From Escherichia phage vB_EcoM_MM02: 64,000 nt of DNA. The stretch lies in the sequence record MK373784.1; one strand, 5' to 3'. Each line of letters begins with the position of its first letter. The first letter of the stretch is position 1. The notes below the pieces were generated by a model. It saw only the letters and a list, made by a program, of their open reading frames with translations. It was not told the origin of the DNA and made no database searches. Positions 26,895-64,000 of this stretch are shown piece by piece. The position numbers and the translations under genes are program-made.

Positions 26895-26918
26895 AGCCCC
26901 AACCATAAGGAAGGGGCT
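26895..26918 (-). terminator. Structured terminator-like hairpin (agcccc..ggggct with internal loop) followed by T-run on minus strand
   Basis: Downstream of the rI stop; a near-identical element recurs at 42243..42264. Confidence 0.5.
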
Positions 26919-32637: not shown

Positions 32638-32940
32638 TTATTTACCTTTAATTACTTTAGCTGCTTCGATAGCCGCTTGCTGAAGGTCATCCATAGACAT
32701 ACCGAATTTAGAAGCAAAGTTATCAATTTTCTTTTCGACAGCATTCAAAGGCTTGGCCTGTTTACCTTCATTAGCGCCAGGAAGAGCGAGAATACGCTCT
32801 TTGTCAATATAAAGGCTTACAAGTTTCTTACGGTCTTTATCGGACAAATCATGAAATGAATGAGCCTTTTTATTTATAGCGGCTTCTAATTTACCTGCAC
32901 TCACTCGCGCTTCAGTAATAAATTCTTTATATGTTTTCAT
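32638..32940 (-). CDS. Internal (capsid-packaged) protein, IPII/IPIII-like
   Basis: N-terminal MKTYKEFITEA capsid-targeting sequence; T4 ipII/ipIII position next to denV. Confidence 0.65.
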   Translation of the reverse strand: MKTYKEFITEARVSAGKLEAAINKKAHSFHDLSDKDRKKLVSLYIDKERILALPGANEGKQAKPLNAVEKKIDNFASKFGMSMDDLQQAAIEAAKVIKGK

Positions 32941-33004
32941 TTTTTGTTTCCTTGTTTGTTTTGATAGAGTAATTATACCATATTAATACTTAAGCGTAAA
33001 CAAT

Positions 33005-33265
33005 TTAAGCTTTACCGCCAGAAATAATTCCGAAGTTGTTAAAATCGTATCCAATATCGTCAACATCTACTTTAGGATTTACTACAACATAAGCAATTTC
33101 ACTACGTTTTGCATAGGTGTTGATTTCTTTACCATCGCCACCTAAGAAAGAATACCCATTACGTTTTAATGAGCCAAAGTCTTCGGCATCACCAATGAAA
33201 GCTTTAACTTTAAATTTAGGACCTTTGGCATCTGCTTCAACGATAAATTCTTGATACATTTTCAT
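33005..33265 (-). CDS. Internal protein-like (CTS-bearing)
   Basis: N-terminal MKMYQEFIVEA. Confidence 0.55.
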   Translation of the reverse strand: MKMYQEFIVEADAKGPKFKVKAFIGDAEDFGSLKRNGYSFLGGDGKEINTYAKRSEIAYVVVNPKVDVDDIGYDFNNFGIISGGKA

Positions 33266-33271
33266 TTTTCC

Positions 33272-33685
33272 TTAGTAAATTGATTTACCATAGTATTTGT
33301 ACCAAGTCGGACGTTGAGCAATTTTTTCATCTAAGCGTGCTTGACTTATCGCAATGGACGCTTCGGACGGGACGTAATTATTACGAAATTCTACAGGAAT
33401 GTCGGAAATATCCTGGACAGTCGTGTCCTTGATTTTGAAACCACGTTTCAAGCATTCAGCGATTAGCTCGATTTGACGTAAACGTAAAAATTCGAGTTTG
33501 TCGTAAAAGAATGTTACGTGACCTGTGCCTAAGATAAATGTTGGAGAGATTTTAAAATCCTTTACACGTTTACCGTTTTGAACATGTTTACGGACTGCAC
33601 CAAATACGCGTGGTAATTCACGATACTCAGCCATAAGATGTTGGTCGGACAGTTCAGAAACAAGTGTTAAATTGATACGAGTCAT
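33272..33685 (-). CDS. denV: Endonuclease V (pyrimidine-dimer glycosylase) DenV
   Basis: [31 protein letters not shown]... recognised as T4 DenV; 138 aa from ATG at 33685. Confidence 0.9.
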
Positions 33686-33690
33686 AATTT

Positions 33691-33742
33691 CCTCCAAGTA
33701 GTTGATGAATGTATAGTATCAAAACCCTTGGAGGAAGTAAAC
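33691..33742 (-). promoter_or_regulatory. Promoter cassette with inverted repeat sequestering the denV SD
   Basis: GTTTAC, TACTAT-like -10; arms cctccaag/cttggagg, the 3' arm being the denV Shine-Dalgarno. Confidence 0.45.
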
Positions 33743-33743
33743 A

Positions 33744-34025
33744 CTATTTTTCTGAAGCGCCTGAAATATATTTTTCAAGACGTTGTTTCATCAGCGAGCC
33801 GTTCTTAGCGATTTCTTCTGGTTTATCGCACATACGCAACAAGGCTTCAAGCTTAGCGATATCGCTGGTACGTTCAAATTTGCGAGTATCTATCTTACTA
33901 GCAAGTTCAGAAATACGTGCTAATAGACTTTCAGCTTCAACCAAAGCTGCACCTAGCTTAGTTGCAAATGTGTCAGTAGCTTCGTTAAGAATAGATTCTG
34001 ATAAAAATTCACTATATGTTTTCAT
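33744..34025 (-). CDS. Internal protein-like (CTS-bearing)
   Basis: Starts [11 protein letters not shown]; its ATG overlaps the e stop (ATGA). Confidence 0.5.
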
Positions 34026-34510
34026 ATATACGCTTTCCAAGTTCCTGTTTTAAATGTTGAGATTACGCGTTTCGCGCGATTAGGTGTCTGACGATACCAT
34101 TTAGATTGGGCTAGATTTACTGCCGCTTCATCCCAACGTTTCTGTTGAAGCATACGAAGAGAATTAGTAAAACCGGCGACGCCTGATACACCCATTTGGA
34201 AGACCATATTGACCAATGCACACCGACGAACCGCATCTAAAGAATCATATACCGGTTTAAGTTTAGCATTACCCAAGATTCCGCGAACGGCTTTATCAAC
34301 GTCTTCATTAAATAGCTTTTCAGCCTCATCAAGGGTAATTGTACCGTTGCATTTACGTCCGATCATTCTGTCAAGTTCAGCTTTAGCTACGGCTAAAGAC
34401 GGGGTCTTTGTTACTAAATGGCCTATGCCAATAGTCCAAAAGCCTTCGGTGTCTTTGTATAAAGTCAGTCTAAGACCTTCGTCATTACGAAGCATTTCAA
34501 ATATATTCAT
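34022..34510 (-). CDS. e: Lysozyme (endolysin) e
   Basis: [31 protein letters not shown]... recognised as T4 lysozyme; 162 aa from ATG at 34510. Confidence 0.9.
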
Positions 34511-34512
34511 AA

Positions 34513-34536
34513 TACCTCCCACGTTTATAGGAGGTA
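34513..34536 (-). promoter_or_regulatory. Hairpin sequestering the lysozyme SD with late-promoter-like TATAAAC in the loop
   Basis: Minus-strand TACCTCC-TATAAACGT-GGGAGGTA immediately before the ATG; matches the transcript-specific translational control described for T4 gene e. Confidence 0.55.
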
Positions 34537-34544
34537 TTTATTAC

Positions 34545-35003
34545 TTATAGGAGTGTAGTGAGCACCTTATATAATGATTTGCCCATTACATATTCCCATT
34601 GAGAAGGTTTAATTAAAGCGAATGCATCAAATTCAGGAATCTGTCGTCCGTCCGGGAATGCATGATAGGAATTACAAACACTGTTTCTGAATTGCTCGTG
34701 CTCTACAGGGATGGTATATAGGAACAGATGAATATTCTTATTGTCTGAGTAATGATGTTCACCTAGGTCTTTCAGGAAGGCAGGGTCATATTGTGTAAAC
34801 CCAGTTTCTTCTTCGCATTCACGAATAGCGGCTTCAATAGGAGATTCGCCAGGTTCGACACGGCCTTTAGGAATATCCCACCGATGAGCTAATGCACCTT
34901 TAGGACGAGAACCAGTTACACGGCCCATGAATAACTCTTTATCTTTTGACATGAAGATAATACCGGCTGATAGCTCTTTCACTTTATTTTTCTTACTCAT
35001 CAT
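34545..35003 (-). CDS. nudE: Nudix hydrolase NudE
   Basis: 152 aa; Nudix box GRVEPGESPIEAAIRECEEETG; downstream of e as in T4. Confidence 0.8.
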   Translation of the reverse strand: MMSKKNKVKELSAGIIFMSKDKELFMGRVTGSRPKGALAHRWDIPKGRVEPGESPIEAAIRECEEETGFTQYDPAFLKDLGEHHYSDNKNIHLFLYTIPVEHEQFRNSVCNSYHAFPDGRQIPEFDAFALIKPSQWEYVMGKSLYKVLTTLL

Positions 35004-42147: not shown

Positions 42148-42242
42148 AACATTTTCCTCTATGGTTGATAAGTCTATAGTATCATGTCCTTAGAAGAAGT
42201 AAACATCTTTATGAAATATTTTTATGCCCTAGATACCAAAAG

Positions 42243-42264
42243 GCCCCAACCATAAGGAAGGGGC
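42243..42264 (-). terminator. Structured terminator-like hairpin (gcccc..ggggc with internal loop)
   Basis: Downstream of the 42271..42735 stop; same element as 26895..26918. Confidence 0.45.
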
Positions 42265-42270
42265 ATTCTA

Positions 42271-42735
42271 TTATTTAATTTGTTTAGCAGACCAGATACG
42301 GTCTTTAATAAGTTTTTGGATATCTTCAACATACTCAAGGCTATGAGCGTGAGGATTATCTTTGAAGCTATGTGCTCGTGCCAGTTTCTGGCCTTCTGTT
42401 TTGATTACTAAAAGCTCTTTAAGAATTGCTTCATACTTAGAAATAATTCCTTTGGCGATATTTTTTTCTTGAGCTGCTTTAGGGTCTGTTTTTGGCGCAG
42501 GTGCTTTACCTGTAGCTTTCTGGAACAATTCACCTGATGCAGCTAGGCTTTTAAAAACTCGGCTAACAGTATTAGCATTAGTAAAACCTTCGGCTTTAAA
42601 ATCTCTAATAAAACGGAAACGTTCTTCATCAGAGGCGTCTTTGTAAGAATATTTACCTGCTTGAATTGCTGCAATCGCAGCGGCTTTTACATCTGAACTA
42701 GATTGTTCAGTCAAAAATTCAGCGTATGATTTCAT
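42271..42735 (-). CDS. Internal protein-like (CTS-bearing) 154-aa protein
   Basis: N-terminal MKSYAEFLTEQ resembles the capsid-targeting sequence. Confidence 0.5.
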   Translation of the reverse strand: MKSYAEFLTEQSSSDVKAAAIAAIQAGKYSYKDASDEERFRFIRDFKAEGFTNANTVSRVFKSLAASGELFQKATGKAPAPKTDPKAAQEKNIAKGIISKYEAILKELLVIKTEGQKLARAHSFKDNPHAHSLEYVEDIQKLIKDRIWSAKQIK

Positions 42736-42781
42736 GTTGCTTTTCCTAAGTTAATTAACTTATCTATTTATTATGCCAAAA

Positions 42782-42805
42782 AGCCCCGACCTTTCGGAAG
42801 GGGCT
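42782..42805 (-). terminator. Structured terminator-like hairpin (agcccc..ggggct) followed by T-run on minus strand
   Basis: Third copy of the architecture; lies between the tRNA region and the downstream ORF. Confidence 0.45.
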
Positions 42806-43116
42806 AAGCCTTGCGGCAACCTTGTCGGGGTTCCACCTGCTAAGGCAAGTGTTTGTACGAAACGCCGGGATTCGAACCCGGTTATTAAGCAGTTGACGCT
42901 ACTCAATATTTTTAAAAGGCCATATCTCGACCATATCCGAACGTTCCGTCAAAAACGCTACTCGGCTTACGGCAAAGATATTTCCTCGAATCGATAATTC
43001 GGTGCGCCGTTTCTGCTGTGATGTAAGGGGATATTAACAAATCGTAAAGATTTATTAAGACCAGTCCTTACTCAGGGAACATCAGTCCGACGACTTGCCG
43101 GTAGCGACCCGGCTTC

Positions 43117-43463
43117 TTATTTTGGCATATCATCAATTTGCTCTCGACGCCGACGCCATAGATTAATCGCTTCATTAACACATTCAGCATTTGGTATATG
43201 ACGACAATAGTATAGTGATTCGCGTTTCTGGAACCGATGTTGTAATGGAATTTCGTTTAAAAGGTCTTTACGGTCAAAGTATTCAAAACTAGTTAACCCT
43301 GAACGGTTTTTAAGAAACTTCCAATGGCCAAATTCATTTTGGAAATAAACGTAATCAGCGTGTTGATATAACGAATTAATCAACCGGTCGGAAATAACTG
43401 TTTCACGTTCGTTAAAATAAAACGTTAAGTCATGAACTACCAGATAAATATTGCCTTTCATAT
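43117..43463 (-). CDS. Hypothetical protein adjacent to tRNA genes
   Basis: Likely start MKGNIYLVVHDL with GAGGA SD 17 nt after tRNA-Arg; the track ORF's upstream extension runs into the tRNA. Confidence 0.4.
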
Positions 43464-43479: not shown

Positions 43480-43556
<77 letters not shown>

Positions 43557-43559
43557 GAT

Positions 43560-43634
43560 TGGTGACCCTGGCTGGTTTCGATCCAGCTACCTATCAGTTA
43601 TGAGCTGACAGCTCTCCCATTGAGCTACAGGGCC
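43560..43634 (-). tRNA. tRNA with CAT anticodon (Ile2 or Met type), CCA encoded
   Basis: Hand-folded cloverleaf: acceptor GGCCCTG/CAGGGTC, D stem GCTC/GAGC, anticodon loop CTCATAA, T stem GCTGG/CCAGC, 3' ACCA. Confidence 0.7.
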
Positions 43635-44233: not shown

Positions 44234-44524
44234 TCACCGTACCATATTAATGTAATTATATTCAATGCAACGTAATTTCAAAGGATTCTTGAAAATATCA
44301 TATTCAAGAGGGCCTTTTTCTGTTTCAATAAAGAAATCAAAGTTAACTGTGTTAAATTTATCGTCTTCACAGAGTAATTTAACTTGCGAAGATGAACGGT
44401 CGATATAAACCTTTTCAACCTCAAAGTTAGTCAGAATACCGTAGTCATCAACTAGTGCTTTAGCTGCACGTTGATCGCTTTCATATCCATTCTCAATGGA
44501 CGATACTTTAGCATAAAGAATCAT
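44234..44524 (-). CDS. Hypothetical protein
   Basis: 96-aa ORF. Confidence 0.4.
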   Translation of the reverse strand: MILYAKVSSIENGYESDQRAAKALVDDYGILTNFEVEKVYIDRSSSQVKLLCEDDKFNTVNFDFFIETEKGPLEYDIFKNPLKLRCIEYNYINMVR

Positions 44525-44883
44525 GAATGTTCCACCATTTCAAAGGTATGAGCATCAACAATATGATACCAGTCAAAATTTTCTTCTGCGTTTTTATAAA
44601 TTTCGCGAAGAGCCTCAACAGTTTTTCCTGTAGCAACAAGGTCGTCAATACCACCAAGAGGATAACAGTCATAACCAGCAAACAGAAGGAAATTAATAGT
44701 TTCTGTAGGTTCTGGATGCAGTGTACCGTTGTCATCGACTACTTCAAAGAACATATAACCAGGCGATTTAGATTTAATCCAAGCCCATGCTTGAGCTGCT
44801 GAATCAAATGGTCTGCGTATCAAACGACAATCATGGTCTTTAGAAGGATTTGCTTCAAAATCCGCATATACGTGATATTTCAT
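44521..44883 (-). CDS. Hypothetical protein
   Basis: Likely start MKYHVYADFE with AAGGTGAG SD right after the upstream stop. Confidence 0.4.
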   Translation of the reverse strand: MKYHVYADFEANPSKDHDCRLIRRPFDSAAQAWAWIKSKSPGYMFFEVVDDNGTLHPEPTETINFLLFAGYDCYPLGGIDDLVATGKTVEALREIYKNAEENFDWYHIVDAHTFEMVEHS

Positions 44884-44884
44884 T

Positions 44885-45091
44885 TTACTCACCTTTTGCA
44901 ATTTTATCCATAACAATAGCGATTAAACCGATTAGAAATGCTACTACCAATGAGATAGAATTTTCAGTTGTTGTCAGTAGTCCGCAAATGAATCCTACAA
45001 ACATCGAAAAACTAAAAGCCATTGAAGCAATTACTACAGCAACATTACGAATCAGTTCAGCGCGTTTCATTTTATTTCTCCATTTACTCAT
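44885..45091 (-). CDS. Hypothetical small membrane protein
   Basis: 68 aa; two hydrophobic helices. Confidence 0.35.
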   Translation of the reverse strand: MSKWRNKMKRAELIRNVAVVIASMAFSFSMFVGFICGLLTTTENSISLVVAFLIGLIAIVMDKIAKGE

Positions 45092-45140
45092 TTGTTTTGA
45101 TAGGACTACTATAACATAGTCCTACCAAGATGTAAACTAC
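45091..45140 (-). promoter_or_regulatory. Promoter/stem-loop cassette, identical 50-mer to 26384..26433
   Basis: tttgttttgataggactactataacatagtcctaccaagatgtaaactac. Confidence 0.55.
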
Positions 45141-45428
45141 TTACAGAAGAGTTTTTGCAATAATTTTAAGCTGAGCTACAGAAATATGCTTAGCTTTAAA
45201 CAGTGCAGTCTCTTCGGCCGGAGAGATAACAATAGTAGCGCCGTCTTTCTTAGCAGACCATCCATCCCCTAAGTAAACAGTACCTTTTACTTCTTCGCCG
45301 TCAACCAGACTAATCATTGGTTTACCCTCACGTCCTTTATTTGCTTTAATAACTTCGGAAGTAAGGGTTGCTTCGGTCAGAGTAGAAACGTTAGCAACAG
45401 GTGATATAAATTCTTTATAGGTTTTCAT
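45141..45428 (-). CDS. Internal protein-like (CTS-bearing), T4 ipI position
   Basis: N-terminal MKTYKEFISP; upstream of 57B as ipI is in T4. Confidence 0.5.
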   Translation of the reverse strand: MKTYKEFISPVANVSTLTEATLTSEVIKANKGREGKPMISLVDGEEVKGTVYLGDGWSAKKDGATIVISPAEETALFKAKHISVAQLKIIAKTLL

Positions 45429-45505
45429 TTTATTTCCTTGAGGTTGTTTATTTGATAGGATGATAGTAACACACCATCATCCTTATGTAAACTGTTTTGT
45501 GAAAA

Positions 45506-61612: not shown

Positions 61613-63192
61613 GTAATAACAATACATACCAACACGTTTCAAATGAATCTATTTACGTTGAATTCGACCCTACGGGGTCGAATTTTCCAGACACGGTCAC
61701 TAATGTCCAAGCCGCATTAGCTGCTATTTCTCCTTCAGGTGTTAATGGCGTACCGGAAGCAACAACTACTACACCTGGAATTATTCAAATAGCTACTCCA
61801 CAAGAAGTTATTGATGGATTAGATAATAGTAAAGCTGTTACTCCGGCAACACTGAATGCTCGACTACAATATCCTAATGCAACCGAAACTCAATATGGCT
61901 TAACTCGTTATGCTACTGAAGATGAAGCAGTAACAGGAACTATTGACGATGCATCAATTACTCCGCTTAAATTGAATCAAAAAATAGACAATGTATTTCA
62001 GACAAAAGTGTCAACAGAAGCAACAAATGGTGTAATTAAAATTTCAACTTCTGCTGCGGCATTAGCCGGTTCTGACGATACGACGGCAATGACTCCGTTA
62101 AAAACGCAACAATTAGCAATTAAACTTATTTCGCAAATTGCTCCAAATAATGGTGACGCAACCGAATCTATTACTGGTGTTGTTCGTTTGGCTACAGTTG
62201 CTCAAGCGCAACAAGGCACCCTTCGTGAAGGCTATGCAATTTCACCTTATACCTTTATGAATTCAGTAGCATCAGAAACTAATAAAGGTGTCGTTAAACT
62301 AGGGACACAGACCGAAGTAAATAGTAACAACTCTTCAGTTGTAGTGACCGGCGCAACATTAAACGGGCGTGGGGCTACAACTTCTTTACGTGGAGTTGTT
62401 CGTTTAACTACACAAGCGGGTAGCCAATCAGGTGGTGATGGTTCTTCTGCCCTTGCTTGGAATGCTGATGTTATCCACCAACGAGGCGGACAAACTATTA
62501 ATGGCACGCTTCGCATTAATAATACGTTGACGGTTGGTTCTGGTGGCGCTAATATAACGGGTAATGTCAATATGACCGGTGGTTATATTCAAGGCAATCG
62601 TATTGTGACTCAAAATGAATTGGACCGAATTCTTCCAGTTGGCGCTATTACAATGTGGGCTGCAGATAGTTTACCGAGTTCTGACTGGCGCTTCTGTCAT
62701 GGTGGGACCGTTTCTGCTTCAGAATGTCCTGTATATGCTTCCAGAATTGGGACACGATATGGTGGTAGTTCTTCTAACCCAGGCTTGCCTGATATGCGTG
62801 GATTATTTGTTCGCGGCTCAGGTCGTGGTAACCATTTAACTAACCCTAATGTTAATGGTAATGACCAATTCGGTAAGCCTCGTCTGGCGGTAGGTTGTAC
62901 CGGTGGATATGTCGGTGAAGTGCAAAAACAACAGATGTCGTATCATAAGCATGCTGGTGGTTTTGGCGAACATGACGATTCCGGTGCATTTGGTAATACT
63001 CGTCGTTCAAACTTTGTTGGTACTCGTAAAGGACTTGACTGGGATAACCGTTCATATTTTACTAACGAAGGATATGAAATTGATCCAGCGTCTCAGCGTA
63101 ACTCTAAATATACCATGAATCGCCCAGAATTAATTGGAAATGAAACTCGTCCATGGAATATTTCTTTAAACTATATCATTAAGGTAAAATAA
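61609..63192 (+). CDS. 12: Short tail fibre gp12
   Basis: 527 aa, same length as T4 gp12. Confidence 0.9.
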
Positions 63193-64000
63193 TGGCTGAT
63201 ATAACTCTGGTAGATTTACCATATGTTGACGGCCCGCCAGACGCGGGTCAGAGTCGTATTGAATGGATTAAAAACGATGAAGAAATAACAGGTGCTGACA
63301 CAAAATACGGTTCTGAAGGTGTAATGAACCGTCCTATTGTTGAAGTTCAACGTAACGTAGAAGCGTTAGATGTTAATATTAAAACTATAGCATCTTCTTT
63401 GAATACGGCCAATGAAGATATCAAAGTTATTCAAGGTATTTTAGATGTTTCTGGGGATGTTGATGCTCTTGCACAGATAGGCCAGAACACCCAAGATATT
63501 GATGTCATTAAAGTCACAGTTCAAACCCATGCTAGTGAATTGAATGATTTGAATGAACATATTGATGCGAATACTGATGATATTGGTGTTTATAATCAGG
63601 AAACAGATTCAGTTTATAGAACGGTTCGTAACGACCTGCTTTGGATTAAAAATGAATTAGGACAATATACTGGTCAAGATATTAATGGGGTTCCTACTCC
63701 AGGAAATGATAGCACTGGTATGAAACGCCGTATTATGACTAATAGCTCCGTAATTGTTGACCACGGTGTTCGATTAACTGATCTAGAAACTAAATTTGCT
63801 GATTCTGACGTCGGCTCTTTAACTATTGAAGTTGAACACTTGCGCGAAGAAATGGGACCTCGCACTTCTTTCACTACTCCGGTGTTTAGTCGTCTTTCCA
63901 GTATTGATTTAACTTTGTCGCGTCAAAATGCTGACTTGGACGGCATTAAACAGTCTATTGGGTATCCTAATACGACTTCTATTATTACTACCACTAATGC
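63192..64000 (+). CDS. wac: Fibritin (whisker) Wac, N-terminal part (runs off window end)
   Basis: ATG at 63192 overlaps the gene 12 stop; [27 protein letters not shown]... recognised as T4 fibritin. Confidence 0.9.
   Translation, partial: MADITLVDLPYVDGPPDAGQSRIEWIKNDEEITGADTKYGSEGVMNRPIVEVQRNVEALDVNIKTIASSLNTANEDIKVIQGILDVSGDVDALAQIGQNTQDIDVIKVTVQTHASELNDLNEHIDANTDDIGVYNQETDSVYRTVRNDLLWIKNELGQYTGQDINGVPTPGNDSTGMKRRIMTNSSVIVDHGVRLTDLETKFADSDVGSLTIEVEHLREEMGPRTSFTTPVFSRLSSIDLTLSRQNADLDGIKQSIGYPNTTSIITTTN

Follow-up and report, generated by a model that had tools for sequence, protein, structure and literature searches.

The internal proteins (Ips) of phage T4 and its relatives are the closest described counterparts of the gene considered here. 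Ip1, Ip2, and Ip3 were shown in 2025 to each block one GmrSD-type type IV restriction enzyme (PMC12373910), and Ips have in common a leader only (PMC12373910; PMC3012670). In this capsid-targeting (CTS) leader, residues 4 and 7 determine targeting while residues 8 and 10 determine processing, according to the amber-suppressor work of Mullaney and Black as summarized in PMC9026906, and the prohead protease gp21 cleaves at the motif (I/L)xE (PMC12991175). The published picture (PMC12373910) comprises two ip loci with about ten to thirteen ip genes, among which Ip4-Ip10 and further T-even ip genes are placed at the ipI locus (Repoila et al. 1994, cited therein).

Here, we analyzed a gene in a 64,000-nt stretch of DNA from Escherichia phage vB_EcoM_MM02 (MK373784.1; this whole stretch is hereafter the window). 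The phage is a Mosigvirus, i.e., an RB69-like relative of T4, and Mosigviruses have arabinosyl-hmC DNA (PMC6024577). The minus-strand frame at 42271..42735 is a real gene of 154 aa (the end coordinate takes in the stop), and the initial annotation was right about both this ORF and the tag-like start of its product, MKSYAEFLTEQ. The protein is 100% identical to APCEc01_157 and Shf125875 gp140, and the identical 154-aa protein also occurs in O157 typing phage 3, JK36/JK45, and others, in all of which it is labeled hypothetical. We consider it probable, at roughly three chances in four, that this product is a head-packaged, gp21-processed internal protein of the T4 type. The features that enter this comparison are listed here in transcribed order, followed by the ipI homologue.

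42857..43120, minus strand: rnaD homologue (about 43002-43120) and rnaC homologue (about 42857-42995), which together border the locus upstream (blastn against T4).
42773..42804, minus strand: terminator copy 1, the left-hand cassette repeat, at the end of the tRNA/rnaD/rnaC unit (hairpin at 42783-42804, then a T run).
42765..42772, minus strand: AATAAATA, which agrees with the T4 late promoter TATAAATA at 7 of 8 positions and adjoins the upstream terminator, 37 nt 5' of the ATG.
42744..42747, minus strand: Shine-Dalgarno AGGA, 8 nt 5' of the ATG, read from the sequence.
42271..42735, minus strand: coding sequence of the 154-aa precursor, PHROG 2280 family (dN/dS 0.07 against the RB68 orthologue).
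42706..42735, minus strand: codons 1-10, MKSYAEFLTE, the predicted CTS or propeptide (CTS score, IPIII alignment, family conservation, low pLDDT).
42274..42705, minus strand: predicted mature protein, 144 aa (composition and AlphaFold2).
42461..42467, minus strand: A7 run within the linker-coding part, where shorter alleles of other phages shift frame.
42233..42264, minus strand: terminator copy 2 (hairpin at 42243-42264, then a T run), the right-hand cassette repeat, which matches T4's single terminator.
45141..45428, minus strand: ipI homologue at the classical 57B-side ip locus (Pfam IPI_T4, E = 1.3e-50).

On the transcribed minus strand, the order is tRNA-Met and tRNA-Arg (43480-43634), ORF 43117-43461, rnaD, and rnaC (about 43120-42857), followed by terminator 1, the 154-aa gene, terminator 2, an early-promoter-like site, and the next ORF. 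The gene had been described as lying just upstream of the tRNA region, which this order corrects: it is downstream of tRNA-Met, tRNA-Arg, and rnaD/rnaC. Its reported separation from the classical ip loci holds, with the gene lying outside both denV/e and 57B/ipI. The rnaC/rnaD homologues, to which Rfam gave no match in the window, were located by blastn, with 92.6% identity to T4 over 351 nt. A 317-nt rnaC/rnaD query retrieved 719 phage records (486 at at least 95% identity), and these RNAs are far better conserved than the adjoining protein genes (dS about 1.9 for the 154-aa gene against RB68), though they carry no annotation in APCEc01. The ORF at 43117-43461 (minus strand), between tRNA-Arg and rnaD, is likewise conserved (PHROG 3355; RB68_139 and RB69ORF150c), while in T4 the tRNA-Arg and rnaD genes are adjacent.

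To assess the leader, we scored for likeness to the T4 CTS MKTYQEFIAE every ATG-started ORF that reaches 40 aa in any of the six frames, 673 in total. Five of them (32638-32940, 33005-33265, 33744-34025, 45141-45428, and 42271-42735) scored 6-8 out of 10, the next best being 4. The start MKSYAEFLTE has six of ten identities to the T4 sequence, Y4 and F7 included, and presents all four critical positions (Y4, F7, L8, and E10), so that the capsid-targeting tag originally proposed is a genuine CTS-type leader. Aligned with T4 IPIII, the family profile matches over residues 1-10 and nowhere else, which is the relation described among Ips. The L8-T9-E10 triplet fits the gp21 motif (I/L)xE, and a gp21 cut is predicted after Glu10 (L-T-E|Q), where P1' is Gln in the Mosigvirus allele and Ala in most family alleles as well as in T4 IPII/IPIII. 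The L-K-E within the mature part, at residues 105-107, was weighed as a further gp21 site and set aside, as in the model it falls in the middle of a confidently predicted long helix.

The relatives of this gene preserve the same pattern over considerable divergence. Down to about 31-35% identity, the critical leader residues are Y/F at 4, F/I at 7, L/V at 8, and E at 10, giving a family pattern of aromatic-4, acidic-6, hydrophobic-7/8, and Glu, which can be followed from closer alleles (MKSYAQFLNE, MKTYNEFLMTE) to divergent ones (MKFKEFLAE, MLKFNEFLAE, MLEYSEFLKE, MITFNDILVE, and MISFNEFVDGNLITE). Among close alleles, the leader measures 10, 11, or 15 aa (FLTE|Q, FLNE|A, FLMTE|A, and FLNEAVLNE|A, the 15-aa form arising from an inserted xVLNE), and whatever its length, Glu directly precedes the conserved mature start [AQ]S[AS]SDV. 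A leader of variable length with a fixed Glu|mature junction is, at the level of these alignments, the expected look of a cleaved propeptide. The member in Klebsiella phage AmPh_EK29 begins MITFNDILVE, while the resident Ip-like proteins of that phage keep MKTYKEF, indicating that the leader is not uniformly constrained; no co-variation of leader and resident Ips was seen in AmPh_EK29, an outcome that neither supports nor kills the CTS reading.

The other four high-scoring ORFs of the window lie at the classical loci. The fifth tagged protein that the initial annotation had placed in the ipI position, at 45141..45428, is a true IPI homologue by the Pfam match given above. T4-early-type promoters (GTTTACA ... 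TAnnAT) occur on both sides of this gene (45429-45505 and 45060-45140, minus strand), each with an inverted repeat between its two hexamers, and we take them to resemble the promoter-early stem-loop cassettes of T4-type hyperplastic regions. At 32638-34522 (minus strand), the order is e, ip (33744-34025), denV, ip (33005-33265), and ip (32638-32940, IPII-like), compared with e, ipIII, ipII, denV at the corresponding T4 locus, and no IPIII homologue was seen in this e/denV locus of the window.

The gene is framed by recurrent regulatory signals. A terminator hairpin of the form GCCCCTTCC-N4-GGTYGGGGC followed by a T run has three matches in the window (42783-42804, 42243-42264, and 26896-26917) against 0.03 expected, and the first two bear out the two terminator copies that had been reported around the gene; these form a 32-nt direct repeat with 81% identity. 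The stem-loop of the third copy (26896-26917, minus strand) is identical to that of copy 2 and is followed by an early-promoter-like GTTTAC...TATAGT, so this terminator module is reused elsewhere in the genome. At the promoter box the window reads ggCATAATAAATAg, i.e., AATAAATA, while in RB68, fD1, CrRp10, and Klebsiella phage RCIP0032 the terminator upstream of the gene is immediately followed by a perfect TATAAATA, and AmPh_EK29 has CATAAATA at the corresponding position. Genuine TATAAATA sites in the window are located 32-40 nt 5' of their ORFs. The 64 kb contain 7 perfect TATAAATA sites, no more than chance would give. T4 gene e has late promoters, and the window carries AATAAATA upstream of its lysozyme gene e where T4 and RB68 have TATAAATA, which indicates that the variant is tolerated at such a gene. 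The region upstream of e (34511-34580, minus strand) contains both AATAAATA and TATAAACG, where T4 has two perfect TATAAATA late promoters; judged from these sites, late-promoter boxes of this phage seem to tolerate a first-position change. A sigma-70 promoter scan returned nothing above chance, and late transcription of the 154-aa gene from the predicted AATAAATA promoter is likely.

As predicted from these signals, the gene is a self-contained cassette of late promoter, gene, and terminator, bounded by two copies of one terminator. Mobile cassettes in which promoter/stem-loop repeats flank variable ORFs were reportedly described for T4-type hyperplastic regions by Arbiol, Comeau and Krisch in 2010. 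As in those cassettes, stem-loop repeats stand on either side of the present ORF and could allow it to be gained or lost, but the repeat here consists of a terminator plus a late-type promoter box rather than an early promoter with an embedded stem-loop.

Searches with tblastn recovered the family from 511 phage records, and in 469 of these the coverage is 80% or more. Seventy records stand at 95% identity or more, the examples listed being Mosigvirus-type phages; 399 fall at 60-80% identity, with Tequatrovirus-type examples listed (RB32ORF133c, RB68_138, AR1, PP01, wV7, and Bas42); and 41 are partial matches below 60% identity, for which the listed examples are Klebsiella T4-like phages. The family is labeled hypothetical in every record and belongs to PHROG 2280, function unknown. 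Beyond phage records, a word search of 5.8 billion proteins gave 9 matches to the family, and an exhaustive HMMER search of 1.84 billion representatives gave 10, adding a few distant T4-like members; by these searches, the family is confined to T4-like phages, where about 470 of the 719 rnaC/rnaD-bearing genomes carry it. Its position is constant: in Mosigvirus, Tequatrovirus, and Klebsiella T4-like phages alike, the gene immediately follows the tRNA cluster or rnaC. The protein has an N-domain that is preserved between genera and a C-terminal domain that is not the same in Escherichia phages as in Klebsiella phages, and the window gene and its RB68 orthologue give a dN/dS of 0.07, i.e., strong purifying selection. 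The suggestion that this was a newly recruited protein is not supported, because the family is syntenic across genera with dN/dS of about 0.07, and the empty site in T4 (described below) looks like a precise loss; read from synteny and substitution rates, the gene is not newly recruited but a member of an old, widespread family. Several phages (e.g., vB_EcoM-G28 and T4_ev240) have alleles of 93-108 aa that change frame at the A7 run and retain leader, N-domain, and linker only; these could be slippage-prone pseudogenization, sequencing error, or a deliberate short isoform. A metagenomic 94-aa protein joins a trna.3-like N-terminus (compare ORF 44521-44916 of the window) to the last 30 residues of the family, a chimera that by its composition is a trace of illegitimate recombination in this hyperplastic region.

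Between rnaC and e.8, relatives differ in what they carry. T4 has no gene there, and in its 285-nt rnaC-e.8 interval the left portion of terminator copy 1 runs straight into what lies beyond copy 2 in RB68 and fD1. As aligned, the T4 site is precisely empty, the crossover falling within the terminator repeat, and T4 looks like it lost the gene precisely between two terminator repeats. RB69 has a different gene at this position, RB69ORF149c, whose product begins MKTYAEFLTE and is otherwise dissimilar. In the RB69 reference (NC_004928; 9429-9991 of the analyzed stretch), this gene is split into ORF149c and ORF148c by a frameshift that could reflect either a sequencing error of the Sanger era or a genuine pseudogene. 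The product belongs to a second CTS-bearing family (MKTYAEFLTE..., 187 aa) that is present in 165 phage records without functional annotation. CrRp10 has both families in tandem, with the second gene at 1601-2164 of the analyzed stretch, in the order rnaC, terminator, TATAAATA, target-family gene, terminator, AATAAATA, second gene, terminator, e.8, such that each gene has its own promoter-like box and terminator. Both families are also found in G9062 and G4500, whereas the second occurs alone in RB69 and is absent from the window, RB68, fD1, and T4. The two fall in one PHROG (2280, E = 1.4e-53 each), and their C-terminal helical hairpins are weakly alike (hhalign E = 1.3e-3, probability 18%), while direct comparison of their N-terminal domains detected no similarity.

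Occupancy of the rnaC-e.8 site among relatives therefore takes four forms, namely the target gene, an RB69ORF149c-type gene, both, or none (T4), and this variation points to a third, variable ip-type locus. On sequence evidence, the site behaves like the known hyperplastic ip loci, with alternative CTS cassettes, a constant leader, and repeat-mediated gain or loss. Comparison with the repertoire of related phages thus bears out an extra CTS gene, as the initial annotation had it, but not an isolated one, since RB69 and CrRp10 vary at the site. Annotators had named Ip5 in RB68 and an "internal head protein" in RB69, yet left the rnaC-e.8 genes unnamed.

The predicted mature form (144 aa, 16.0 kDa) has a pI of 9.6 and a net charge of +8 (20 Lys and 6 Arg versus 18 acidic residues), and is basic like the window's ipA (IPII-like) and IPI products. 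In the AlphaFold2 models (pLDDT 75-79), residues from about 13 to 75 form a small helical N-domain and residues 85-151 a long C-terminal helical hairpin, joined by a Pro/Lys/Ala linker (about 76-84), with the leader disordered and at low pLDDT in both models. The predicted fold consists of plain helical hairpins, and fold searches gave no functional hint, so the structural comparison that had been proposed for this protein was uninformative on its helical mature fold. Pfam and NCBIfam gave sub-threshold noise only (GemA, MerR, and others), the family profile had no meaningful match among PDB sequences (Old Yellow Enzyme, E = 0.04), and the protein matched neither Pfam IPI_T4 (PF11634, the IPI* family, a GmrSD inhibitor; noise only at Pfam E <= 1) nor DUF7412 (PF24183), the latter being weakly matched by the N-termini of the window's IPI and IPII-like products (residues 1-51 and 1-85).

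With regard to the virion, data come from Yersinia phage fD1 (Tequatrovirus), whose orthologue Gp140 (157 aa, about 78% identical) carries the PPAP mark, at the strict threshold, in an LC-MS/MS analysis of virions purified by ultracentrifugation (PMC8309999, Table S3). By the count of the same dataset, 113-137 of the 277 proteins of the phage are particle-associated, as are 672 from the host, and DenV, NudE, and lysozyme are among those listed (PMC8309999); because it is this unspecific, the listing of Gp140 raises the odds of packaging only about two-fold. Absence from virions, which the initial annotation had named as the refuting outcome, is therefore not what the orthologue shows, and the listing weakly favors packaging, within a dataset of low specificity. 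No Mosigvirus virion proteome was found in the literature, and virion proteomics is absent from the RB69 arabinosyl-hmC paper (PMC6024577) and the fPS-2/65/90 paper. In fD1 (HE956711), a 157-aa "head protein" (g129, 62785-63258) adjoining denV is also particle-associated in Table S3 of PMC8309999, and it has the same length as the Tequatrovirus allele of the target family.

Set against T4 IPI, IPII, and IPIII, the gene shares a 10-residue MKTYQEFIAE-type leader ending in (L/I)xE, known here from sequence, a small and mostly basic mature protein, dispensability with presence or absence among relatives, and mature parts without similarity. It differs in its locus (between rnaC and e.8, not beside 57B or denV/e), in a mature part that is unrelated to all three and that, with 144 aa and two domains, exceeds IPI and IPII in size, and in being much more conserved across genera. 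T4 Ip1-3 each inhibit one GmrSD variant (PMC12373910), whereas the likeness of the present family to them is one of leader and locus behavior. Like the Ip4-Ip10 site, the rnaC-e.8 site houses alternative CTS genes with a constant leader at one hypervariable position, but Ip4-Ip10 are situated on the 57B-tRNA side, where RB68 Ip5 is labeled while RB68_138 goes unnamed. That two Ip loci are described (PMC12373910) speaks against the target family being one of ip4-13, and among the ip4-10 genes tested by Silas et al., no match to the family was established from the supplements. A further comparison is the RB69ORF149c/RB14ncORF136c/CrRp10 gp089 family, with the same locus, nine of ten leader residues, and the same cassette layout. 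T4 Alt, as presented in PMC9026906, is also head-packaged, gp21-processed, injected, and encoded outside the two ip loci, as we propose for the target; it is, however, a large enzyme with different propeptides at both ends, unlike the target with its Ip-type CTS and no enzyme domain.

With the leader, cleavage motif, promoter box, cassette, and locus behavior read from the gene and its relatives, we infer packaging, processing, and injection of the product. Transcription would be late, from the promoter-like AATAAATA 3' of the rnaC terminator, and MKSYAEFLTE, acting as a CTS, would dock the precursor on the scaffolding core while the prohead assembles. The prohead protease gp21 would then cut after Glu10 (L-x-E) and remove the leader, and the 144-aa, 16-kDa, lysine-rich helical mature protein would stay with the packaged DNA and be injected with it. 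After injection, it might neutralize a host defense, by analogy to T4 Ip1, Ip2, and Ip3, which do so for distinct GmrSD enzymes.

The analogy behind this last step is weakened by purifying selection and cross-genus synteny, which are unlike the fast-changing classical Ips, and between an anti-defense and a DNA-associated or structural role we see roughly even odds. A protein that is packaged and processed but inhibits no defense, and instead serves the DNA through charge neutralization, condensation, or help in ejection in a conserved, housekeeping-like role, would fit a predicted mature form as basic as this one (20 K, pI 9.6), given that in T4 heads only Lys of the internal proteins contact DNA phosphates (PMC3012670). 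It would also fit the plain helical-hairpin fold of the model, as well as a dN/dS of 0.07 and an N-domain conserved across genera, unlike arms-race proteins. However, T4 and about a third of the rnaC-bearing T-even genomes lack the gene and frameshifted alleles are common, indicating that it is dispensable; all three T4 Ips, including the basic IPIII, are specific GmrSD inhibitors (PMC12373910); and the C-terminal domain differs by host group, as expected for host-specific targets. Weighing these points, we regard a packaged protein with no defense target as unlikely, although deserving of real weight.

A further possibility is that the protein is cytoplasmic and never packaged, its CTS-like start being a recombination relic and the leader DNA a homology patch for cassette exchange. 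The near-identical leader (MKSYAEFLTE versus MKTYAEFLTE) on an unrelated protein at the same site in RB69 and CrRp10 could be read this way, as could the divergent leader in AmPh_EK29 and the weak virion evidence from fD1. We find it improbable, since positions 4, 7, 8, and 10 retain their amino-acid pattern despite saturated DNA divergence (dS 1.4-2.4), indels respect the Glu|mature-start junction, and the late promoter is conserved in orthologues. Moreover, the 10-residue CTS alone suffices in T4 to package foreign proteins (PMC9026906), so a late-made protein with such a leader would be expected to be packaged. The lack of a named domain might even suggest a chance ORF or an annotation artifact, an idea that has almost nothing left to it in view of 511 homologue records (469 at at least 80% coverage), a dN/dS of 0.07, the Shine-Dalgarno, promoter box, and terminator, and orthologue peptides detected by mass spectrometry. 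A head-packaged, gp21-processed internal protein thus remains our preferred reading.

We tentatively go one step further, to a broader proposal that we judge possible rather than probable. Accordingly phrased, the rnaC-e.8 site might be a third, undescribed ip locus with two distantly related families of two-domain helical CTS proteins. The target family, which in contrast to the classical Ips is conserved between Escherichia and Klebsiella phages and combines a constant N-domain with a C-terminal hairpin specific to the host group, might then be an injected effector against a conserved host function or against some defense other than the GmrSD variants that Ip1-3 inhibit. Both families would have been overlooked because the T4 site is empty and every database calls them hypothetical, although hundreds of sequenced T-even-type phages carry them, among these therapeutic candidates and phages of the BASEL collection. 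Both families are candidate injected anti-defense effectors.
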